Sequence record: PZ171032.1
Origin: a phage
Length of the DNA stretch: 64,000 bases
Direction: 5' to 3' (one strand)
A program made the translations under genes and the position numbers. Of this stretch, positions 13,518-62,208 are shown piece by piece. The notes under the pieces are model-generated. The model was not told the origin of the DNA. It was given only the letters and a program-made list of their open reading frames with translations, and did not search any database. How positions within the stretch are numbered: position 1 is the stretch's first letter; every line of letters starts with the position of its first letter.

Positions 13518-13575
13518 TGTGTTGATAAACTATCTTTATAGATGGCCCTGCTACCAGGACCACCGAAAAAACAGT

Positions 13576-13821
13576 TTATTTGACGATACCGACAAAACAG
13601 ATCCCGCCTTCCCCTATATAGGCAATATCGGTAATTTTATAATTTGTCAAGATCCGCGTGTTCAGCTCATTAATAAAATCGGTCATCGCGTTGGTGTAGT
13701 TGTCTTCCGTATCTAAGGCATAATCCCAGGTGTAAACCTTTTTACGTCCGAAGCCTTTTACCATGATACGGGCGCTTTTGGTGTTAGTAGGGGCATAATA
13801 CTTGGTGATTAGTGCTGCCAT
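13576..13821 (-). CDS. hypothetical protein
   Basis: AAGGAG RBS; downstream of conserved promoter element. Confidence 0.6.
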   Translation of the reverse strand: MAALITKYYAPTNTKSARIMVKGFGRKKVYTWDYALDTEDNYTNAMTDFINELNTRILTNYKITDIAYIGEGGICFVGIVK

Positions 13822-13862: not shown

Positions 13863-13892
13863 AGTTTACTTTATTGATGGCCCTGGAGTCAA
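13863..13892 (-). promoter_or_regulatory. sigma70-type promoter within conserved repeat (TTGACT-N18-TAAACT), minus strand
   Basis: repeat element GATGGCC...GGCCATC-AATAAAG-TAAACT shared with the copy at 14484-14513; -35 sits in the loop of the inverted repeat. Confidence 0.5.
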
Positions 13893-13911
13893 GGCCATCT
13901 AAAAATAAATT

Positions 13912-14253
13912 TTACTCGTTTTCTTCCAGCTCTGAAAGCTCTTCTTTCACTTCTTCCAGCTCTGTCTGCAATTCCCGGTATTCTTCATCGTCCTCAATAT
14001 CCAGGCTGTCGATGTAGTCGCTAAATCCGCAGCGGTAAGCGATAGGATCTAACTCCTTGAGGATACGCGACGGAAGAAAAGAAATGTTTCCGATCATAAT
14101 TTCGCCGTAGATCTCGTCTAACCATTCATCATAGTTTTCGTCGTACTTGTCCTCGTCGATTTCAAAGTTATCGATCTTGTTCTCAAGGTCTGCGATCTGT
14201 TTTTTCAGCGCGGCGATCTGCATAGCTTTTTCTGCGGCGGTCATAGTAGTCAT
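13912..14253 (-). CDS. hypothetical acidic protein (coiled-coil-like composition)
   Basis: AAGGAGA RBS; highly charged composition. Confidence 0.6.
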   Translation of the reverse strand: MTTMTAAEKAMQIAALKKQIADLENKIDNFEIDEDKYDENYDEWLDEIYGEIMIGNISFLPSRILKELDPIAYRCGFSDYIDSLDIEDDEEYRELQTELEEVKEELSELEENE

Positions 14254-14483: not shown

Positions 14484-14513
14484 AGTTTACTTTATTGATG
14501 GCCCTGGTGTCAA
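14484..14513 (-). promoter_or_regulatory. sigma70-type promoter within conserved repeat (TTGACA-N18-TAAACT), minus strand
   Basis: second copy of the about 45-bp element seen at 13863-13892. Confidence 0.5.
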
Positions 14514-14531
14514 GGCCATCTAAAAATAAAC

Positions 14532-14927
14532 TCAATAAGTTTTTAGTACTTTCCCGTCCAATCTGTCAAGCTGGATCTCGATAGCTGCAGAAAACCTATT
14601 GTAAACCACATCACCCAGGGAGTCCAGCCAATCTATGACGTTATATACCTGCTCTTTATTCTTGCAAGTCCGGATCCGTTTCATTACGTAAGACGGATCA
14701 ATATTAGCGCTCTCGTTGTTGTGGTCCTGCGCATGGCCTGCTGCGCTAGTTATAGATTTTACAACCACCTGAAAGGGCTTTAAGGTGCCTTTTGCGTTCA
14801 TCTCACGCGCTTTTGCTGCGCGGTTGTTATATGTTACACAACGGCGGCAAATGTTGACCAAATGCATATCAATAATTTTTTCATCGTTTGCCAGTTCGTT
14901 CATGATGCGGCGTACGTTCTTATTCAT
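14532..14927 (-). CDS. hypothetical protein
   Basis: ORF downstream of promoter 14976-15003; no motif. Confidence 0.6.
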   Translation of the reverse strand: MNKNVRRIMNELANDEKIIDMHLVNICRRCVTYNNRAAKAREMNAKGTLKPFQVVVKSITSAAGHAQDHNNESANIDPSYVMKRIRTCKNKEQVYNVIDWLDSLGDVVYNRFSAAIEIQLDRLDGKVLKTY

Positions 14928-16350: not shown

Positions 16351-16458
16351 ATGAGAACTCCTCGCATTTAATAAATTTAATTAGCACGCTAATTACCCTC
16401 CGTAACAATTTCCTATAAAATAGTATCCACTAAAATATTCCCATATAGAAATTTTAAA

Positions 16459-16633
16459 AATCCATTTCTGAAAACGAAAAATCGATTTCGTCCCCAAAAA
16501 TTTCAGGTCGAGAGCCGGAACGATTTCCAGAAAATCCGATTCAGAAAACGAAAAACAGATCGAGTACTGAGAAATTTATCGAGAAAAATTTTCAGAAAAT
16601 TCAATCTTTGAAACGAAAAACAGATCGAGTACT
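16459..16633. repeat. direct repeats GAAAACGAAAAA(C/T)(A)GATCGAGTACT (three copies, about 70-85 bp apart)
   Basis: 25-mer repeated almost exactly at about 16544 and 16610, partial copy at about 16459; additional AAATCCATTTT words nearby. Confidence 0.5.
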
Positions 16634-16943
16634 TGGAAAGCTGCGCCACAACTTCAAGGTAGTGGTTGGATTATTACTATAAAAGGTCAAGGGTAAGTGG
16701 GGGAAGTTCTAGTAGAAGGGTGTGAGCATGTGCGGGAAATCTGTAATGGTGGTCTGGAATATGGTGCAGACGATAGGATGAGTGGTTCATCTCGTCGTGC
16801 CTGCTCTGAAAAATCCATTTTAGTTTTCGATCCATTTTCTGATTTTCTAAGGATTTTAAAATATCCTGGTAGGTAAAATATCAAAAGGAGGAAATCCATT
16901 TTAGAAATCCTCCTGATCTCTGGCAACCTGATAACTTAAAATA

Positions 16944-20443: not shown

Positions 20444-20471
20444 AAAAATGCCCCACCCTTTCGGGCAGGGC
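20444..20471 (-). terminator. rho-independent terminator (GNRA-looped hairpin plus U-run), minus strand
   Basis: minus strand GCCCTGCCC-GAAA-GGGTGGGGC followed by ATTTTT; same element recurs at 32073-32100. Confidence 0.6.
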
Positions 20472-32072: not shown

Positions 32073-32100
32073 AAAAAGCCCCACCCTTTCGGGCAGGGCC
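32073..32100 (-). terminator. rho-independent terminator (second copy of GNRA-looped element), minus strand
   Basis: minus strand GGCCCTGCCC-GAAA-GGGTGGGGC followed by TTTTT; near-identical to 20444-20471. Confidence 0.6.
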
Positions 32101-40546: not shown

Positions 40547-41731
40547 TTAAGCTTTAGCCAAAATGGCGCTAAACTCTTCACCAAACTCTTTTACAATCTT
40601 CATCAGGTTTGGGTATGCTTTGATCAACTGAGCAACAATCTTGTCACGCCCTTTACCGATAAGCAAGGCATTTCCTAAGGCGTTAGGTTTCATCATCGCC
40701 ATAAAGACTGAGAATACAAAATCTCGGTTCTCGTCCTTGAAATTTTCCCAAAGGAAATCGAGGAAGTTTGCCACACAGCTAACAAGATCTTCGTCGGAGA
40801 TACTTGCATTTTCCATCATATTGCGAATAGCGATACAACCTTCAGATCCAAGAATCCACAAAATGTCTGGCTGCTTAGGACCTACGTATTCTTTGCAGCC
40901 ACCTGCCATAATCCGACCGATTTCCGGTAAATTACGTTTCTTGGTGTGGTAAGTCCAGATCTCTACCGCTGCAGTGTGACCAATAGCACCTTGTAGAAGA
41001 ACACGGGCCATAGCGTCAGAAATAATACCGCTGTCAAAATCGTGCAAGATGTCAGATGCAGCAACCCAAGATCGCGGTGTGGCAAAAGATGGACAATTAA
41101 TCTCAGCCATAGCCTCATAATTATCAATAGCTGAGGGAACTCTTTTCAAATATCCAATTACAGAGGAATGCACCCCATTAAGGAATGCGTAGTCCTCAAT
41201 AAACACCTCTGCATTGCTTGTAACCTCTACAATGATAAAACGGTTAGCCAGAGGGGCTTCGAGCGCCGAAAGAACCGCACCATCTGTAGAACGGTTACCC
41301 GCAGCCACAAAAACAGAACCCTTAGGGAATGCATAGGTGCCGCACTTGTGGTCAAGCATAATTTGCATTGCAACCTTTTGCAGGTAGTTATCTGCATGAG
41401 TGAGCTCATCCAGAAAGATAATTCCGCTCCAGTCAGGATCCGCAGGCCAAAATTCTGGAATTGCAAACACTGTACGTGTAGTTCCATCCGCTTCTACAGG
41501 GATAGGTAGCCCAGATAAGTCGGCAGGATCTTTATCTGACAGTCGCACGTCAACAAGGTTGTCATCTCGCTCACCGAACATATTATCAGCGATCTGCTTC
41601 ATCACCTGGCTTTTACCCACACCCATTGGTCCCAAAATTAGGACAGATCGGCTATGACGTTGGGCAAACTGAATAATAGCTGGCAACTCACGGACAGTGA
41701 TTTGACCACTTTCGAATACGTTTCTTGACAT
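40547..41731 (-). CDS. MoxR/CbbQ-like AAA+ ATPase
   Basis: Walker A LILGPMGVGKS; Walker B IIFLDELTHAD; sensor-1-like VFVAAGN. Confidence 0.75.
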   Translation of the reverse strand: MSRNVFESGQITVRELPAIIQFAQRHSRSVLILGPMGVGKSQVMKQIADNMFGERDDNLVDVRLSDKDPADLSGLPIPVEADGTTRTVFAIPEFWPADPDWSGIIFLDELTHADNYLQKVAMQIMLDHKCGTYAFPKGSVFVAAGNRSTDGAVLSALEAPLANRFIIVEVTSNAEVFIEDYAFLNGVHSSVIGYLKRVPSAIDNYEAMAEINCPSFATPRSWVAASDILHDFDSGIISDAMARVLLQGAIGHTAAVEIWTYHTKKRNLPEIGRIMAGGCKEYVGPKQPDILWILGSEGCIAIRNMMENASISDEDLVSCVANFLDFLWENFKDENRDFVFSVFMAMMKPNALGNALLIGKGRDKIVAQLIKAYPNLMKIVKEFGEEFSAILAKA

Positions 41732-42000
41732 TAGTAAAAGTCCTCTACTTGTGTGTAAGTGTTTTCAAAGTTTTCCAAAACAGATATCACATCGAATCTG
41801 TCAATATCATACGTGACTCTCCAGTTGTACGCAACCCTTTCTGCTGTTGCCTCTTCTGGCGCTAGTCGTCTGCTGGCATAAAAGAGTGTTGGAGTACACT
41901 TTCTTGCTTGCCCTCTAACTTTCCCATAATAATATCTGTGAATATCTTTGTCAAAATTTAACTCTTTTTCTGCACGAAGTTCATATTGCTGGTATAACAT
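41731..42000 (-). CDS. hypothetical protein
   Basis: stop/start overlap. Confidence 0.5.
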   Translation of the reverse strand: MLYQQYELRAEKELNFDKDIHRYYYGKVRGQARKCTPTLFYASRRLAPEEATAERVAYNWRVTYDIDRFDVISVLENFENTYTQVEDFY

Positions 42001-42044
42001 CTCTACTACTCCTTAAGCAGCATCCTTGCCGCCATTCCTGCCCA

Positions 42045-42425
42045 CTAAAATGCAGTCCGAATCCAGACAAGGTTCTTATCTGCCCAATCATAGAGGCAAG
42101 TCATTGCACTATTGAATTGCTCACACGGAGGATAATCTTCTTCCATCTGGCGCATAGCAGAGCCTTGTGGGTAAAGCTCCCGTGCTGCAAACCACGCGTC
42201 GTAGTCATCAACGGTGTCGAAGTAGTATACAACATCCTCTAACTCAGGATCGAACTTTGAACTATCAGGATCCAGTTGTTCAGGGAACTTGGAGCGTAAC
42301 TTGCCAGCTACAATACTTGCCAACTCGCTAACATGCTTATTGTCCCACTCCACTAGCTTCCCGTCTTCAGTGATGCGTCCTAACCACTGATCATGAAGGT
42401 CAACTGTTGTCTTCCACTGGGCCAT
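42045..42425 (-). CDS. hypothetical protein
   Basis: ORF. Confidence 0.55.
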   Translation of the reverse strand: MAQWKTTVDLHDQWLGRITEDGKLVEWDNKHVSELASIVAGKLRSKFPEQLDPDSSKFDPELEDVVYYFDTVDDYDAWFAARELYPQGSAMRQMEEDYPPCEQFNSAMTCLYDWADKNLVWIRTAF

Positions 42426-42427
42426 TA

Positions 42428-42685
42428 TCAGTCCACCTCTTCTTCTCGTTGTAGTTCAAGATACCCGTAGGTCTGGACATCTTCAAGGGTGTGGAACTCC
42501 CCATCTGCCGCTAATGCACGAACAACTTGGCACAAAACCTTATGAGGAACTTCATCCAGACCAAGATTCAGTGCAGGGAACACCTTATCTAAGTCAACAA
42601 AATAAATGAACTGTAGCTCACCAGCTTCAAAAGGTGTATCTTCAATAAACATCTTCTCGGCATTAGTCAAGATCTGCACTTTCAT
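42428..42685 (-). CDS. hypothetical protein
   Basis: ORF. Confidence 0.5.
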   Translation of the reverse strand: MKVQILTNAEKMFIEDTPFEAGELQFIYFVDLDKVFPALNLGLDEVPHKVLCQVVRALAADGEFHTLEDVQTYGYLELQREEEVD

Positions 42686-43041
42686 TATTCTACCTCCTCT
42701 TCTTTTTCTTCGGCATTAGTTTCATGGCTACCCCACTCCGGAGTTTCCACCTCGATAGTAAACTCACGCACTACACGGTAATTGCCCATGAAGCGCTCTA
42801 CTTCGTCAAGGCTTATGGAGAGGCCATTGGCAACCAGGTCTGCAGCACCCTCTTCTACCAGGTAGTCCAGATTGGCTTCCAGAGCCTCAGGTTCAAACCC
42901 TGTCAATGCAATCAGATAACCTTCCCCTTCATCAGGGAGGACAATACAGCCCAATTGATTTTCTTTAAAAAGGCAGTGACCATCATTATTGATTGGGTGT
43001 TCATTGCAGTAAATAGCTGCACGATAAGTAACTTTAGACAT
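42685..43041 (-). CDS. hypothetical acidic protein beginning MSKVTYRA
   Basis: ATG at 43041 preceded by TAAGGAGA RBS; RBS plus first 8 codons lie in a 30-bp repeat shared with 44880-44908. Confidence 0.55.
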   Translation of the reverse strand: MSKVTYRAAIYCNEHPINNDGHCLFKENQLGCIVLPDEGEGYLIALTGFEPEALEANLDYLVEEGAADLVANGLSISLDEVERFMGNYRVVREFTIEVETPEWGSHETNAEEKEEEVE

Positions 43042-43054
43042 CGGTAAGGTCTCC

Positions 43055-43333
43055 TTAGGCAATTGTCATTTTACATTCTTGAAATTTTAACACAAGACGG
43101 TGATTGTGTCTAGTGTCTAAAAAGATTTTTTCAACCATCAGGCACACGGTATAACCGTCCATCTTGTTGACAACAAAATCTCCAGGATGAGGGAGGATGT
43201 CTCCCGGATTGGGGAAACATAGTCCACTCAGAAAGGCATCGTCAGTGGTGGACTTAATAGATTTCCACACACTGTCTGCCTGAACATGTTCACCGACGTA
43301 ATATACATTACCACATGCCTTCATCATAGTCAA
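43055..43333 (-). CDS. hypothetical protein
   Basis: ORF. Confidence 0.5.
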   Translation of the reverse strand: MTMMKACGNVYYVGEHVQADSVWKSIKSTTDDAFLSGLCFPNPGDILPHPGDFVVNKMDGYTVCLMVEKIFLDTRHNHRLVLKFQECKMTIA

Positions 43334-44229
43334 ACCCTCGCATAAATTAAACTTGTATCAGTATACTTCTTTAATGGGTAAATATCCTGTCCATAGATGC
43401 AATCATTAAACACCTCATCTACCCAAAGGCTACACTTATATCCCATCATTTCTAAAACACCCATCTCTTCTTCGGTAAACTTATCACCGCTCTTGCAAGA
43501 TGTCAATACCTCATTCTGAACTCTTGCTACCTCGAAGCGGTTATTGGCAATATCGCTATTGGCGATCAAATACTCACCTAGAGGGTGTGCGGCATTAAAG
43601 ATGCACAGTGGACGGCTGACGTAATAGTCTCCGGGTGTATAAAAATTGTTGAGGTCTTTCACTAGAACATTCTTATCAGTCACTTCATTTATAACATCAT
43701 GCATATCGCACATCTTTATATGTTTGAGGATTCCATCCCCCATCACAAAATAAAAACTTGCTGAGACACTTTCGGCATAGATCTTACTAGATCCGTTGTA
43801 GTTGTATTTTACTCGGATGCTAACGGGGGTTTTTCCTGTCGCGTTAGCCATCATCCAAAGAAATGGCAGCTCATACTTCTCCTCTGAGGAAACAAAAGGT
43901 GAGGTAGCCAGAGATCGAAAACCTCCAGAGAAGTTGAAAGTTACAGAACCGCTCCGGCGGTATGATACCGCGTATTCTACTTTTATATCGACATACCCAT
44001 TGGAATAGGTGTGTCCTTCATTATCTAAATATGTCCACTTATCAGACCCAGATACCAATCTACGCTCAATAACCTTCATCACTATAGGAATTAATGGGTT
44101 GGTACAAACCGCTTTTGAAGTAGCTTTATCATCTAAAGCCTCGTAAATTGCAGAAAGGATGTCCCCAGCTGAAAGATTGGTTGTTATGTCCTGTTTCCAC
44201 CGCGTACTAAAACTGTTAAGATTTGCCAT
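43330..44229 (-). CDS. hypothetical protein
   Basis: first gene of minus-strand array, downstream of divergent promoter. Confidence 0.6.
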   Translation of the reverse strand: MANLNSFSTRWKQDITTNLSAGDILSAIYEALDDKATSKAVCTNPLIPIVMKVIERRLVSGSDKWTYLDNEGHTYSNGYVDIKVEYAVSYRRSGSVTFNFSGGFRSLATSPFVSSEEKYELPFLWMMANATGKTPVSIRVKYNYNGSSKIYAESVSASFYFVMGDGILKHIKMCDMHDVINEVTDKNVLVKDLNNFYTPGDYYVSRPLCIFNAAHPLGEYLIANSDIANNRFEVARVQNEVLTSCKSGDKFTEEEMGVLEMMGYKCSLWVDEVFNDCIYGQDIYPLKKYTDTSLIYARV

Positions 44230-44269
44230 AAGTAAGTGCTCCTATGTTAGTTTTCTTTCGAATGGGTGC

Positions 44270-44298
44270 ACTATATTGTGGAGTTAGAGTAAAGTCAA
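44270..44298 (-). promoter_or_regulatory. sigma70-type promoter (TTGACT-N17-TATAGT), minus strand, divergent
   Basis: hexamers on minus strand about 40 nt upstream of ATG at 44229 with AGGAG RBS. Confidence 0.5.
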
Positions 44299-44311
44299 CA
44301 CGTTTTTGATG

Positions 44312-44340
44312 TTGACATCTGTTGAGACAATTGATACGAT
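44312..44340 (+). promoter_or_regulatory. sigma70-type promoter (TTGACA-N17-TACGAT), plus strand, divergent
   Basis: hexamers; inverted repeat GTCAACA...TGTTGAC spans the two -35 regions. Confidence 0.5.
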
Positions 44341-44371
44341 TTCTTCACTTACAGAGCACGAGAGACGACTC

Positions 44372-45349
44372 ATGAATCTTGAAAAATATTATACACCAGA
44401 AGAGTTAGAGCGCTTGCTCAAAAAATATAGACGCAAACAGAATAACGCACGGAAACGAGATATAGAGTTCGACCTGTCATGGGAAGAATACCTCCTATTT
44501 GGTAAAAAACTTTTAGGAGATGGAGTATGCGACTATACCCTTATACCTTTTGACATGCACACAGATGAAAACGGGCTGGGGAATCCTTTCTACCCATCTC
44601 TGGAGCGGATAGATGATGAAGGTCCTTATGCGGTTGATAACTGTTGTGTGGTGGGATTGAGATGCAACTCTCTAAAGGACTGTCTGGTAGATAAAAAGAC
44701 TGCAGTCTTGATTAAAGACGAAACTGATCGAAAAATTGTCCAGCAGATGATGCTCCACCTGAGCGAAGAGCGTATGGAGAAATTGAAAGGTGATTATACT
44801 TTTGAAGATTTCATCTTGCAATATGGAACGGAAGAGGATAAACTAGCACTCTTTGACGAAGAAGAGGAGGAAGATATGCTACCGATGTCTAAAGTTACTT
44901 ATCGTGCACCCAAGAAGCACATTTCCGACATTGTAAACGAGCCTATCACAGAAGAGATTGAAGAAATGACGCAACAGGTGCATGAAGAGGAAAAAGAGAC
45001 TCAGGAGGTCGAAGAGGAGATTACAGAAGAGGTTCCTGCACTACCTGATGATGTTGAGATTGCCAAAGCTTACACTTTCTATTGTCAAACGTTCTACGAT
45101 GTAGGTATGAAAGTTGATCTGTCGTTCAGCCAATTTAAGAGTTCGTATATTCGCAAATGCTGTGCTTTAACTGGTGAACGTCTTGGAGCTGGACTTAAAC
45201 CCCTGTTGGTGACCGACTGGAATAAAGGTTTCACTAAAGGAAACTTTATGGTAGTATCTCCAATTATGGAGAAAGCTATGACAGATCTTATGAAGACCAC
45301 CCGCATGACAATGACCGAGTTGGCAGGTATTTTCAAACACGTTAAATAA
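44372..45349 (+). CDS. hypothetical acidic two-part protein (internal MSKVTYRA segment)
   Basis: track ORF starts at TTG 44306 inside the promoter; first ATG at 44372; contains internal copy of the 30-bp repeat. Confidence 0.6.
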   Translation: MNLEKYYTPEELERLLKKYRRKQNNARKRDIEFDLSWEEYLLFGKKLLGDGVCDYTLIPFDMHTDENGLGNPFYPSLERIDDEGPYAVDNCCVVGLRCNSLKDCLVDKKTAVLIKDETDRKIVQQMMLHLSEERMEKLKGDYTFEDFILQYGTEEDKLALFDEEEEEDMLPMSKVTYRAPKKHISDIVNEPITEEIEEMTQQVHEEEKETQEVEEEITEEVPALPDDVEIAKAYTFYCQTFYDVGMKVDLSFSQFKSSYIRKCCALTGERLGAGLKPLLVTDWNKGFTKGNFMVVSPIMEKAMTDLMKTTRMTMTELAGIFKHVK

Positions 45350-45382
45350 TGACAGGGGCCAATGGCCCCTTCTGGAGTTTTA

Positions 45383-46843
45383 ATGGATAGCAGAAGTTCA
45401 GAAATCATTGCCTCGCAGAAAGATGATGCCCTGAGAATGTTGCAGGCTGCACGTATGTATCTCCTTGAAAAGCTGCCGTTTTATGGCACACTACTGTCAG
45501 GGTTGCAGTTCGTAGAAAACCACACATGGTGCTCCACCATGGCAACCGACCATAAACGCATCTATTACAGTCCTGAGTTCATTATGGGATTGGCTGATGA
45601 GCGCAAGGCTATTCTTAAGGCTTCTCTAACTGACGAGCAGTTTGAGATGGCTGAAGTTTTCTATTCCCCAAAATCTGTGAAAGAGGTGGCCTTCCTTCTG
45701 TCACATGAGGTGGGGCATATTATCTGTGATCATCTAGTCCGTGGTAAAAGCTTTGAGCCGGAACTGTTCAATATTGCTTGTGATCACGTTATCAACACAG
45801 GCCTTGTGGTTGACTTTAGCAAACCTCCTTGTGTTTTCTTCCCGAAGGGGAAAAGCACTACGTTCATGAAAGGTAAGCCTTTTGGCTTCTTAGCCAGCTG
45901 CTACTGTGACATGAGGTTTCATGGATGGATTGCTGAGAACGTTTATGCAGTTCTTGATAAGCAAAGAGATCAGAATAACGGTAAAAGTAAGAACGGTAAA
46001 GGTGAGAACTCTCAAAGTGATAAGCGACAAACCGATGATCACATGAGTGGGAACGGTGGCACCAGTGATAATCTTGGAAAGGCTATGGGGTATGATCAGC
46101 CACAACCTGTAATCAGCCAATCTGATAAAGATCAGGCCATGCAGGACTCTGGTGATATGCTGGAGGCAGCAATGCAAGCTTCCGGAGGTCGTTGCCCTGA
46201 GGCGGTGCGTGAGTTTGTCAAGAACAGGGGTAAGCCTGTAATCAACTATATAGACATCATTAAGCAACGCATGTTGTCTAAACGAAAGGCTGAACTGACC
46301 TACAGAAAACCTGGTCGCCGATCTGGGTCTTTGACCAGCACAATGCGAAAAGTTGGGGCTATAAACAAGAACCAGCACGTTATTGTTCCCGGTCGTAATC
46401 CGGAAAACACCATAGATATTGTTGTAGCTTTAGACGTTTCTGGCTCGATCTCTCAAAGAACTTTAAAGAAAATGTTCAATGAAATCACCGGATTGTGCAA
46501 TCTGTATAAAGAGTTTAAGGTTACAATGTTCTGTTGGTCAACTGAGGTTGGAGAGGTTAAAGTATACACTCGCGGTAACATAGATGAGATGATCAACTAT
46601 GAGGTCCACTCAACATGGGGCACAACAGCTGCTTGCGTGTTCGAGTATCTAGATGCCAACATACCAAATGCAAAAGATGTCATCGTATTGACCGACCTAT
46701 ACTTTGAGCATAACTTTGAACAAAAGGCTGTTGACAACAAGTGGAAAAAGTACGATACTTTATGGGTTCTCACCGAAGGGTATAATAAAAATTATATCCC
46801 TAGCTTTGGGAAAACTGTGGAATTAATCGAGTACGCTAAGTAA
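45383..46843 (+). CDS. vWA-domain protein with N-terminal putative metallopeptidase-like domain (HExxH)
   Basis: HEVGH motif in N-terminal half; MIDAS-like D-x-S-G-S (VVALDVSGSIS) in C-terminal half; start moved to ATG 45383 with GGAG RBS, alternative ATG at 45362. Confidence 0.7.
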   Translation: MDSRSSEIIASQKDDALRMLQAARMYLLEKLPFYGTLLSGLQFVENHTWCSTMATDHKRIYYSPEFIMGLADERKAILKASLTDEQFEMAEVFYSPKSVKEVAFLLSHEVGHIICDHLVRGKSFEPELFNIACDHVINTGLVVDFSKPPCVFFPKGKSTTFMKGKPFGFLASCYCDMRFHGWIAENVYAVLDKQRDQNNGKSKNGKGENSQSDKRQTDDHMSGNGGTSDNLGKAMGYDQPQPVISQSDKDQAMQDSGDMLEAAMQASGGRCPEAVREFVKNRGKPVINYIDIIKQRMLSKRKAELTYRKPGRRSGSLTSTMRKVGAINKNQHVIVPGRNPENTIDIVVALDVSGSISQRTLKKMFNEITGLCNLYKEFKVTMFCWSTEVGEVKVYTRGNIDEMINYEVHSTWGTTAACVFEYLDANIPNAKDVIVLTDLYFEHNFEQKAVDNKWKKYDTLWVLTEGYNKNYIPSFGKTVELIEYAK

Positions 46844-59109: not shown

Positions 59110-60156
59110 TTAAGCATAAGATATAGTGATCCATTGACCGTTTACAAGTTTTTGGATAGCACCTGTCCAGTAATCACCTTGATAAGGGTGTTTATAAGCG
59201 TAGTTACCAGAGCACATCACATGTCCAGGGTAGACTCTTGACTCTCTGTAGGTGGTTTTGAAACGGTTCGCTATCCTTACATCGTCAACCCCTCTACTGG
59301 GCATAGGGACAGTAAGGTTACCACTACCGTCTGCGCTGTTACCGTTTACCCTGCGGACCACGTTTCTTCCACCAACGGTTGCATATTGGCCTCTAACGGT
59401 TTCATCGTTACAATCAACTCTTCCACCTATTTGAGCGCTTCCGCAGGATTGTTGTCCGTTAACAGTGGCTCTTGGTATCGTGACCGCATTGGCATTTGCA
59501 GAGGAACTTTTTGCATCGTTGCATTCAAGATTTCCTTGGATAGCCAGTCTTGCACGGTTGGCAGTTATAGCATTGAGCTTCATAGCCGAAAACACAGTCT
59601 GCCCACCAGAAGGTTGAAATCTCCAACGGAACCCGTCTATTTGGTGAGAAGGATCATCAAGGTCTGTGCCGTCAGCACCACCGATGTTGTCCATAATCCA
59701 GAAGTCCATCGTCGTCTTGTCTGGAGTTATGGTGGTATATATTGCCGCATTGTCTGTTGACGCAGATGCAAACTCGATTCTTTGAAGGCCTAAAGTTTGA
59801 GTCTGAGTCATTATGTCTCCAGACTTGTCAACATACAGATCGTCCATTTCTTCAGGCGAGTATACATTGAGAACTTGACGTGCAGCAGCTTTGTCTGGAA
59901 CGTCTGCTAGATTATTAGTGACCCTTAAGAATCTATTATCCCATCCTGGGACAACATCTTCTGTTAAATGCTTTAACCACGCAGAAAGCATGTGAAGTTC
60001 AAAGTTAACAACTTCACATGCCACTCTTTGTGTCATATCCCAACCTTTCAATCTCTCTTCTTTTTTTGGTTGAGACTTATTCAACTCTCCCGTATTTTCA
60101 AGCACAACATCCTGATTGGCCCAAATATCAAGAGGGATAACTGGTTTAGTCATCAC
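59110..60156 (-). CDS. tail fibre protein, paralogue 1 (348 aa)
   Basis: collinear similarity with 61168-62208 (shared N-terminus P(L)(D/E)IWA, shared C-terminus QKLVNGQWIT(I/V)(S/N)YA). Confidence 0.65.
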   Translation of the reverse strand: MMTKPVIPLDIWANQDVVLENTGELNKSQPKKEERLKGWDMTQRVACEVVNFELHMLSAWLKHLTEDVVPGWDNRFLRVTNNLADVPDKAAARQVLNVYSPEEMDDLYVDKSGDIMTQTQTLGLQRIEFASASTDNAAIYTTITPDKTTMDFWIMDNIGGADGTDLDDPSHQIDGFRWRFQPSGGQTVFSAMKLNAITANRARLAIQGNLECNDAKSSSANANAVTIPRATVNGQQSCGSAQIGGRVDCNDETVRGQYATVGGRNVVRRVNGNSADGSGNLTVPMPSRGVDDVRIANRFKTTYRESRVYPGHVMCSGNYAYKHPYQGDYWTGAIQKLVNGQWITISYA

Positions 60157-61167: not shown

Positions 61168-62208
61168 CTATGCATAATTAACAGTGATCCATTGACCATT
61201 TACAAGTTTTTGTAAAGGTCCTGCCCAGTAAGTTGAACCACGCATCTCTTTTTTGTCACCGAAATGCCAGCCTGTGACAACGTAGCCGTTGCGGATTGGA
61301 GATTCAGAAACGCCGTCCACAAGTCTTGCACCGATTCTGATGTCTTGCACACCCGTCTGCGGGATAGTGATCGTTACATCACCGTTACCGTTAGCCGTCA
61401 CTCCGTTCACAGAGCGAACCACATTTCTGTTACCTACAACACAGTGCTGGCTTCTTACAACCATACTGTCACAACTTGCACCACCATTAACATATACTGA
61501 CCCAGCCGTCAACTGACTAGCCACATTACAGTTGGTGAATGTTGCGGTATTGCTGATAGTAAGGTTATTGCACCTCATGTTATCGACAACTTCAACATTG
61601 CCTACCACTTTCAACAGCGCACGGTTAGCCGTGATCGCGTTAAGGTACATCAAAGTGAACTCTGGATTAATATCCGGCTGAGTTGGCTGGAATCTCCAAC
61701 GAAACGCATCTATTGTAGATGTGCCACCATCATCAAACGACCCAAAATTATCACTTAACCCAAAGTCGAGAGTTGTCTTATCTGGGCCAATAGTTGTCTC
61801 TATCCAAGCCTTATCTGTCTCGGCAGCTTTAAAGTTGATACGTTGCAAACCCAATGGGCCTGTCATTGTATCACCTGTAACTTTTACATACCTAGCGTCT
61901 GCCTCTTCCTTAGTAATAATCCCAAGGTTTCTACGGGCAACAGGAATGTTCAAAAGATCACTCAAGTTATTATCACGTACCAGATAACGGCCTTCTTGAG
62001 CGGGGATCTGCTCGTCAGCAATGTATTTTGCCCAAGTCCCGAGCATATTGAAAATATAGTTAAGCTCTTCGCATGAGGGCTTTTGACCAAGATCCCAACC
62101 TTTTCTCCACAAATCATCAATCGGGCGTAGCCTGTTCTGTCTGTGGGTGTTAGGCAGAACCTGATCCTCCTCTGCCCAAATCTCTAATGGAAAACTAGGT
62201 TTTGACAT
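61168..62208 (-). CDS. tail fibre protein, paralogue 2 (346 aa)
   Basis: paralogue of 59110-60156; followed by Tfa-like chaperone. Confidence 0.65.
   Translation of the reverse strand: MSKPSFPLEIWAEEDQVLPNTHRQNRLRPIDDLWRKGWDLGQKPSCEELNYIFNMLGTWAKYIADEQIPAQEGRYLVRDNNLSDLLNIPVARRNLGIITKEEADARYVKVTGDTMTGPLGLQRINFKAAETDKAWIETTIGPDKTTLDFGLSDNFGSFDDGGTSTIDAFRWRFQPTQPDINPEFTLMYLNAITANRALLKVVGNVEVVDNMRCNNLTISNTATFTNCNVASQLTAGSVYVNGGASCDSMVVRSQHCVVGNRNVVRSVNGVTANGNGDVTITIPQTGVQDIRIGARLVDGVSESPIRNGYVVTGWHFGDKKEMRGSTYWAGPLQKLVNGQWITVNYA

Follow-up and report, generated by a model that had tools for sequence, protein, structure and literature searches.

A 29-bp inverted repeat joining two unrelated genes of a Murica-like Vequintavirus as the probable footprint of a microhomology-bounded patch copy

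The window, a stretch of 64,000 nucleotides of phage DNA (sequence record PZ171032.1), belongs to a Vequintavirus of the rV5/Murica-like type (99.5% identical). Two of its genes, encoded on opposite strands, share a short identical tract. The first is the homologue of rV5 ORF8 (positions 42685-43041, minus strand; 118 aa; PHROG 12908), which has an AAGGAG motif 9 nt upstream of its ATG. The second is the homologue of rV5 ORF11 (44372-45349, plus strand; 325 aa; PHROG 3118), a two-domain Srd-like protein. Pfam searches with ORF8, ORF9, ORF10, and ORF11 returned no significant families. Homologues of ORF11 are labelled either "anti-sigma factor" or "HNH endonuclease", and the RefSeq naming, which also includes anti-termination, is inconsistent. 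The N-terminal domain is similar to the Srd and endonuclease VII PHROGs. Matches of the window's ORF11 to PHROGs 3118, 1400, and 4592 suggest a likeness to T4 Srd ("decoy of sigma70") and to the related ORF11 proteins of the Vequintavirinae, among whose genera the two-domain layout is kept at 30-40% identity. This likeness would concern only the gene that received the repeat, not the repeat itself. The two domains are separated by an acidic, low-complexity linker (44837-45046, plus strand; aa 156-225; 34% D+E) that is rich in indels in alignments of the relatives. In an AlphaFold2 model of ORF11, which was built from a 13-sequence alignment and is poor overall (mean pLDDT 47.8), residues 163-224 are predicted as coil with pLDDT below 50, which is too little to prove a disordered linker. 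An internal duplication within ORF11 was also considered, but is unsupported (BLASTP of the N- against the C-terminal domain, E = 1.7).

One arm of the repeat (43018-43046, minus strand) comprises 5 nt of the 5' untranslated region and codons 1-8 of ORF8, which encode MSKVTYRA. The other (44880-44908, plus strand) lies in frame in the ORF11 linker and encodes (L)PMSKVTYRA. A sequence-only reading of the locus had described an exact inverted repeat of about 30 bp. The repeat is indeed exact, but its length is 29 bp, as base 30 is T in the minus-strand arm (43047) but C in the plus-strand one (44879). The same reading was right that the octapeptide forms the start of one protein and recurs in frame within the other, and that the two proteins differ outside the repeat. 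Two details had to be corrected: the ATG of the plus-strand copy occupies 44885-44887 and does not begin at 44886, and this copy sits within the acidic linker between two conserved domains rather than at the edge of an acidic C-terminal domain. No other perfect inverted repeat in the window reaches 22 nt. When the sequence was shuffled 100 times with its dinucleotides preserved, no match appeared, and under a uniform expectation 7e-9 inverted pairs of 29 exact nt would occur in 64 kb. All 29 nucleotides are the same in the ORF8 start and the ORF11 copy, every synonymous site included, which speaks for a copy and against convergence.

The distribution of the two arms reveals the direction of copying. 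All 18 Vequintavirus loci examined contain the ORF8 arm, with 0-2 mismatches. By tblastn, the ORF8 protein was matched in 117 phage records, the alignment starting from residue 1 in all matches listed, and even a homologue of only 61% identity (L020) begins with MSKVCRAM and thus keeps MSKV..RA. The ORF11 arm, in contrast, is limited to 28 of about 120 Vequintavirus records, whereas roughly three quarters of the relatives have no copy; this difference sets the polarity as ORF8 to ORF11. Elsewhere, the homologous position of ORF11 reads ACCGATG-CAGGATTTTAAAAATTTCATGGCTG-ATCGTGCAG, and the alternative linker motif M[ST]P[MA]Q[DE][FL][KR][NE]FM..R is found in the rV5, FV3, and Aya types and in homologues that are 62-65% identical. 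The copy in ORF11 is therefore the derived state of a sub-clade of rV5-like E. coli phages, as opposed to the ancestral linker of sister lineages and outgroups, while the start of the donor ORF8 is kept throughout. An allele intermediate between the ancestral and derived linkers was not found. Exact matches to the 29-mer were absent from IMG/VR viral contigs and from GTDB genome contigs, and among JGI/ENA metagenome contigs a single one contained it, in the parental arrangement. A search for literature on rV5/Srd or Vequintavirus recombination yielded none specific to this locus.

Once present, the arms have drifted independently. There is one mismatch in Nomine, A51.2, and PMBT16 and two in Alma, and in ECP32 both arms are altered; the two arms are not maintained together. 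These data also bear on the possibility that the 29-mer has been kept as a working element, be it a peptide motif recognized by a common partner or an mRNA element bound by a translational regulator. Phages from several countries, 28 records in all, contain the derived allele, which has also moved into the ECP32 background and is thus at least well tolerated. However, substitutions arise independently in each arm, the peptide is the N-terminus in ORF8 but an internal linker segment in ORF11, and about three quarters of the relatives manage without a copy. Furthermore, RNA folding of the two contexts revealed neither a significant nor a shared structure (z = -1.78 and +0.37). A function of this kind is very unlikely, and the repeat looks like a mutational scar and not like a working element.

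How the scar may have formed is indicated by a nucleotide alignment of the rV5-type ORF11 allele with ORF8. The two sequences share the microhomologies ACCGATG (7 nt) and ATCGTGCAG[C] (9-10 nt), and ACCGATG and ATCGTGCAG enclose the replaced interior, precisely where the shared tract has its edges. In the window's ORF11, this interior is the TCTAAAGTTACTT of ORF8, which stands in frame in place of the ancestral stretch. The ORF11 sequence on both sides of the 29-mer is orthologous to ORF11 of all other Vequintaviruses. We thus regard the repeat, with a probability of roughly 0.8, as the footprint of one lineage-specific, microhomology-bounded ectopic patch copy from ORF8 into the ORF11 linker. 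The comparisons show the polarity and the microhomologies, as well as the restricted distribution of the copy and its independence from the mosaic breakpoints described below. In an ancestor of the Murica-like Vequintaviruses, the ORF11 linker would have supplied a DNA end or a nascent strand that paired, via the 7-nt microhomology ACCGATG, with the inverted ORF8 start 1.86 kb away, either on that genome or on a sister genome. From ORF8 some 13-22 nt, comprising TCTAAAGTTACTT and neighbouring bases, would then have been copied before the strand returned to ORF11 through the 9-10-nt microhomology ATCGTGCAG[C]. By this route about 25 nt would have been swapped for 13 nt, a net change of -12 nt that preserves the frame and converts the peptide QDFKNFMADRAAN in the acidic interdomain linker into SKVTYRAPK. 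The mechanism could have been a template switch or microhomology-primed short-patch gene conversion, and the underlying enzymology either a strand switch at the replication fork or break repair. The patch lies in a tolerant place, the acidic and indel-rich linker, and the change was presumably close to neutral. By chance alone, some 3,500 pairs of sites in a 137-kb genome should show double microhomologies of this sort; given that the event has been ascertained, the existence of one suitable pair is thus unremarkable.

Some features of the locus fit the patch copy less well. The C residues flanking the tract at 44879 and 44909 are explained by neither the donor nor the ancestor, and to account for them one must assume either additional substitutions or a donor or recipient allele that has not been sampled. 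An FV3-like ORF8 allele, CCTACCAATG, could be an alternative donor, as it accounts for the C at 44879 at the cost of a mismatch at 44884. The replaced segment is moderately conserved in the 62-65% identical homologues, and the change may therefore not have been fully neutral. Moreover, the distances bridged in classic quasipalindrome template switches are tens to hundreds of bp, as against 1.86 kb here. The event nonetheless has much in common with template switches of the quasipalindrome type and with short-patch conversion: a tract is replaced in one step by a nearby inverted copy, the junctions lie in short microhomologies (here 7 and 9-10 nt), and, as in template switching, the result is a cluster of substitutions with an indel by which an inverted repeat arises or is extended. 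It differs from quasipalindrome-type switches in that donor and recipient are 1.86 kb apart instead of lying within one hairpin-sized unit, and in that both are coding and the copy is in frame. Unlike template switches that have been observed, it is deduced from comparison.

After its origin, the derived linker allele would have passed between co-infecting relatives through ordinary homologous recombination, as a cassette of about 0.4-0.5 kb. This "Murica-type" linker cassette, which includes the patch, is a divergent block of alleles about 0.5 kb long and extends from approximately 44600 to 45100 on the plus strand. In comparisons with otherwise near-identical phages, 75-80 differences are confined to the region from about 44600 to 45102. 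The block boundaries lie at about 44600 and 45070-45100 in I29, HeinrichReichert, SophiaRose, and Mangalyan, and in ECP32 the block, here from about 44675 to 45075, is embedded in an FV3-like background. To judge from these boundaries, the cassette is shuffled between lineages by homologous recombination. The 29-mer sits in the middle of the block, with the edges about 200-280 bp away on either side.

This mosaicism must be distinguished from the proposal of the sequence-only reading that the repeat is a recombination joint at which modules are exchanged, in which case ORF11 would be a chimera joined at the 29-mer. The linker region of ORF11 is truly mosaic among the relatives, and the ORF8 and ORF11 proteins diverge past the repeat. 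Yet ORF11 is orthologous to its counterparts in all relatives on both flanks of the 29-mer, and the mosaic boundaries at about 44600/45100 and 44675/45075 do not coincide with the repeat. Homologues of ORF8 were found only in Vequintavirus, and among the database matches they were never joined to parts of ORF11. In the alignment of related genomes, on which the sequence-only reading had staked this claim beforehand, the ORF11 copy was missing from about three quarters and no breakpoint fell at the 29-mer. What survives of the proposal is a recombination-like copying between two genes; a site where modules swap the repeat is not, as its flanks are native and the breakpoints lie elsewhere, and we consider a module joint extremely unlikely. 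The repeat resembles the proposed boundary or "linker" crossover sequences of mosaic phages insofar as a short sequence is common to otherwise unrelated genes. Unlike these, it does not coincide with mosaic breakpoints, is intragenic in the recipient, and is recent.

An inverted repeat within two coding sequences could also be the substrate for DNA inversion. The segment between the arms (43047-44879; 1,833 bp), which is the part that would invert upon recombination of the arms, contains ORF9, ORF10, the first 169 codons of ORF11, and, between 44230 and 44371, the divergent promoter region. An inversion of this 1.83-kb segment, similar to that of the Mu G segment or a shufflon, would fuse the N-terminal part of ORF11 to ORF8 (N-ORF11::ORF8) and leave the C-terminal domain of ORF11 as a stand-alone gene with the ribosome-binding site of ORF8. 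The arms agree in peptide and reading frame, and in silico the flip yields two intact in-frame chimeras while both divergent operons are still transcribed. A length of 29 bp is about the minimum for RecA-type homologous recombination. As in the Mu G segment (Gin), the P1 C segment (Cin), and the R64 shufflon, the inverted repeats lie in coding sequence in the same frame, and inversion would exchange C-terminal protein parts. Unlike the Gin, Cin, Hin, and shufflon systems, however, the locus has no invertase gene and its second orientation was not found in the databases, and in contrast to Gin, Cin, and the shufflon the repeats are not conserved as a pair, nor do the genes code for tail fibres or pilins. 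Pfam and PHROG scans of ORF6-ORF12 and the MoxR ATPase detected no recombinase domain. All 116 near-full-length records are collinear, although this was seen in consensus assemblies, where a minority inverted subpopulation might not appear. The predicted junction occurred in none of 114 matching records of the phage collection, where no record reached a coverage of at least 80%, and had no match in complete E. coli genomes. Likewise, no chimera appeared among the protein-database matches, the single metagenome contig is parental, and the arm pair is limited to a sub-clade in which the arms drift apart. A Mu- or shufflon-like inversion substrate is thus exceedingly improbable. It is also very unlikely that the 29-bp repeat serves Murica-type phages as a low-frequency homologous-recombination switch that inverts the promoter-containing 1.83-kb segment. 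If true, such a switch would produce the N-ORF11::ORF8 fusion, place the C-terminal domain of ORF11 on the ribosome-binding site of ORF8, and lead to population heterogeneity in an early host-takeover protein.

As the tract includes the initiation region of ORF8, its copy may have provided or improved an internal translation start in ORF11, from which the linker and C-terminal domain would be made as a separate protein of 154-157 aa. The ATG of the repeat itself (44885; M172) has no Shine-Dalgarno core 4-10 nt upstream. Three codons before it, at 44876 (M169), lies another in-frame ATG with GGAGG 5 nt upstream (44864-44878, plus strand; GAGGAGG followed by 5 nt and the ATG; predicted product 157 aa). 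Among 325 internal in-frame ATGs in the long ORFs of the window only 4 have such a core. A Shine-Dalgarno-like core and an ATG near the boundary between the N-terminal domain and the linker occur in 9 of 11 homologues, including those of Seunavirus and Mydovirus, and gene callers chose ATG 44876 on truncated contigs. Three apparently stand-alone C-domain proteins (157-161 aa) are assembly truncations, as their contigs begin 15-16 nt upstream of the ATG. However, glutamate codons (GAG/GAA) yield Shine-Dalgarno-like strings by themselves, and the core and ATG of 44876 also exist in rV5 and FV3 types without the repeat. The patch therefore neither marks nor created this site. ATG 44876 is the better candidate and is older than the patch; an internal start owed to the copied initiation region, or marked by the repeat as had been suggested, appears very improbable.

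Unless rare inversion or internal initiation can be demonstrated, the preferred reading, a patch copy, carries no obvious consequence for the biology of the phages. For annotation it advises caution: shared N-terminal peptides should not be taken for signs of domain shuffling, and a perfect inverted repeat with a start codon need be neither regulatory nor a module boundary. The locus would offer a clean natural case of a templated, microhomology-bounded patch that moved between two unrelated phage genes, with donor, recipient, ancestral state, and the later spread by homologous recombination all visible in one place.

The start of ORF8 (42685-43041, minus strand, 118 aa) recurs in inverted orientation inside ORF11 (44372-45349, plus strand). 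Repeat finding placed the two arms at 43018-43046 and 44880-44908, 100% complementary and 1,833 nt apart. No other perfect inverted repeat in the 64-kb window reaches 22 nt, and the uniform expectation for a 29-nt inverted pair is 7e-9. The sequence-only reading had described an exact repeat of about 30 bp; it is exact, but its length is 29 nt, as the 30-mer found at 43018-43047 (minus strand) has one mismatch at 44879-44908 (plus strand) in a pattern search of the window. The 30-mer had 0/100 matches in shuffled sequence. The ORF8 arm (minus strand) comprises 5 nt of leader and codons 1-8 (MSKVTYRA), with AAGGAG 9 nt upstream of the ATG. The same octapeptide is indeed encoded by the ORF11 arm (plus strand), in frame, as ...EEDM-LPMSKVTYRA-PKKH....

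The two arms differ in distribution. Among 18 Vequintavirus loci compared, the ORF8 arm was found in all 18 with 0-2 mismatches, and the ORF11 arm is restricted to the Murica-like set. A 91-nt query spanning the ORF11 arm found full-length matches in 28 records, 27 of them at 100% identity and that of ECP32 at 97.8%; in all other Vequintaviruses the match is limited to 29 nt at ORF8. Homologues of ORF8 occur in 117 phage records, every alignment among the matches listed begins at residue 1, and the homologue in L020, a syntenic relative further removed (61% identity), begins MSKVCRAMIYINEKP. The alternative ORF11 linker motif is kept in the homologues P0015 and P0016, which are 62-65% identical (MTPAQELREFMEKR...). 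This widespread ORF8 start, together with the alternative motif in distant ORF11 homologues, shows that ORF8 was the donor and ORF11 the recipient.

In the protein, ORF11 reads EEDM-SPMQDFKNFMADRAAN-KHISD without the arm and EEDM-LPMSKVTYRAPK-KHISD with it. From left flank through left shared tract, interior and right shared tract to right flank, the rV5-type ORF11 reads GATATGTC, ACCGATG, CAGGATTTTAAAAATTTCATGGCTG, ATCGTGCAG and CCAAC, the window ORF11 GATATGCT, ACCGATG, TCTAAAGTTACTT, ATCGTGCAC and CCAAG, and the ORF8 start CCTT, ACCGATG, TCTAAAGTTACTT, ATCGTGCAG and CTATT. According to this three-way nucleotide alignment, the ancestral recipient therefore already had a 7-nt left-hand and a 9-10-nt right-hand tract in common with ORF8; the exchange is confined to the interior, with a net change of -12 nt, in frame. 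The tract-edge bases C 44879 and C 44909 fit neither donor nor ancestral recipient, which implies extra substitutions or unsampled alleles. Since roughly 3,500 site pairs with 7-mer and 10-mer matches within 40 nt are expected per 137-kb genome, suitable microhomologies are unsurprising once the event is ascertained. The linker (34% D+E at aa 156-225) was modelled as low-confidence coil, and the entire structure model is poor. From this comparative anatomy we infer one recent ectopic event, bounded by microhomology, in which the start of ORF8 was copied into the linker of ORF11 and of which the repeat is the scar; the copying may have proceeded by template switch or short-patch gene conversion.

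Inversion between the arms was also considered, and in silico inversion of 43047-44879 leaves two intact in-frame ORFs. The inverted orientation is unsupported, however: the predicted junction reached 80% coverage in none of 114 matching phage records and was not found in complete E. coli genomes, chimeric proteins were not found among ORF11 homologues in a set of 5.8 billion proteins, and in the single metagenome contig where the 29-mer was found the spacing is parental (1,862 nt). Pfam and PHROG searches of the neighbouring genes revealed no recombinase encoded near the repeat. Judged by their sequences, the two arms are not kept matched to each other. Of the phages with the ORF11 arm, Nomine, A51.2 and PMBT16 each have one mismatch in the ORF8 arm (reading TGCCG) and Alma has two, and ECP32 has changes in both arms.

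The repeat had also been proposed as a recombination joint for modular exchange of gene segments, an idea that the alignment of relatives contradicts. I29, HeinrichReichert, SophiaRose and Mangalyan follow the window almost base for base from 42685 to ~44590 and then show ~75-80 differences, the first at 44600 and the last at 45067-45102. ECP32, which has FV3-like flanks and is Murica-like from ~44675 to 45075, is a clear recombinant carrying a Murica-like cassette. These block boundaries and ECP32 suggest that the linker is a 0.4-0.5 kb cassette swapped by homologous recombination. Its apparent breakpoints (~44600-44675 and ~45067-45102) fall in the conserved domain-coding flanks, and the 29-mer lies mid-cassette; it was thus rejected as a module joint. 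The ectopically copied patch would later have spread within this cassette. The linker (44600-45100) is a hypervariable mosaic with indels of 3, 9 and 12 nt, exchanged among Vequintavirus lineages. A dense block of ~28 substitutions at 43187-43356 (ORF9 and the 3' end of ORF10) sets Nomine, A51.2 and PMBT16, otherwise near-identical, apart from the window; by its sequence it is another small recombination cassette.

Nor does the repeat appear to mark an internal translation start, as had been suggested for an ATG at 44886. The repeat does contain an ATG, but at 44885-44887 (M172), with no SD core 4-10 nt upstream. GGAGG lies 5 nt upstream of the ATG at 44876 (M169); a 5-nt core precedes only 4 of the 325 in-frame ATGs internal to the window's long ORFs. 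A comparable SD-like core and ATG near the N-domain/linker boundary occur in nine of 11 ORF11 homologues, Seunavirus and Mydovirus included (window 44864-44878; loci L003, L004, L019, L020 and L022-L025; GGAGG, AGGAG or GAGG, followed after 5-8 nt by an in-frame ATG), and are missing in Kashira and Avunavirus 19-1-2. Because this arrangement is present in genomes without the repeat, it predates the patch, and the question of a start at M169 is independent of the repeat. A conserved internal start yielding a C-terminal protein of ~150 aa is possible; the Glu-rich sequence makes SD-like strings likely at 44864-44878, so that codons confound the signal. Database "proteins" of 157-161 aa starting at M169 were rejected as real short genes and regarded as truncation artefacts, because their source contigs begin 15-16 nt upstream. 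Two independent metagenome contigs (L029 and L030, both at 1-20; window ~44861) break at a GAAGAGGAGGAAG run at this distance from the M169 ATG, probably an assembly-graph break from strain variation in the linker, which leads to the spurious gene calls in protein databases.

Escherichia phages pangalan, Murica and relatives (Vequintavirus, rV5-like) share 99.5% identity with the region, and 42000-46000 is collinear in 116 of 120 matching phage records, the other four being short fragments. Sixteen "Campylobacter phage" records share 93-99% identity with rV5-like phages of E. coli over this region, and their assignment to C. jejuni looks doubtful. A divergent promoter region separates ORF8 to ORF10 (minus strand; rV5 numbering) from ORF11 and ORF12 (plus strand). 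This unit is flanked by a MoxR-like AAA+ ATPase (40547-41731) and the DUF2201 metallopeptidase/VWA protein ORF12 (45362-46843; labelled "HNH endonuclease" in RefSeq), a pairing also kept in L019 and L020, which are more distantly related. ORF8 matches only PHROG 12908, a family without assigned function. ORF11, annotated "anti-sigma factor; Srd-like", matches PHROG 3118 along its entire length, and its N-domain additionally matches Srd, "decoy of sigma70" and endonuclease VII PHROGs; its public labels conflict ("anti-sigma factor", "HNH endonuclease" or "anti-termination protein"). Pfam gave no match for ORF8 to ORF11, including ORF10 (43330-44229), publicly called "alpha 1-3 fucosyltransferase".

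Other repeats occur in the window. GC-rich hairpin and T-run units recur between genes (13528-13587, 13863-13922, 14484-14543; 20445-20471, 32073-32099; for example GATGGCCCTGG...CAAGGCCATC, and GCCCCACCCTTTCGGGCAGGGC) and look like repeated terminators. Three tandem-like copies of a 57-nt unit with GAAAACGAAAAA(C/T)(A/C)GAT, spaced 65-74 nt, lie at 16444-16639, and a 63-nt direct repeat of 83% identity (59111-59173 and 61169-61231, 2 kb apart) possibly marks paralogous genes.

RNA folds of both 29-mer contexts were unremarkable (z = -1.78 and +0.37), and the analyses run gave no evidence that the repeat functions as an element at the DNA, RNA or peptide level. As a scar of copying from ORF8 into ORF11, it would be a fresh instance of an already known kind of mutation.
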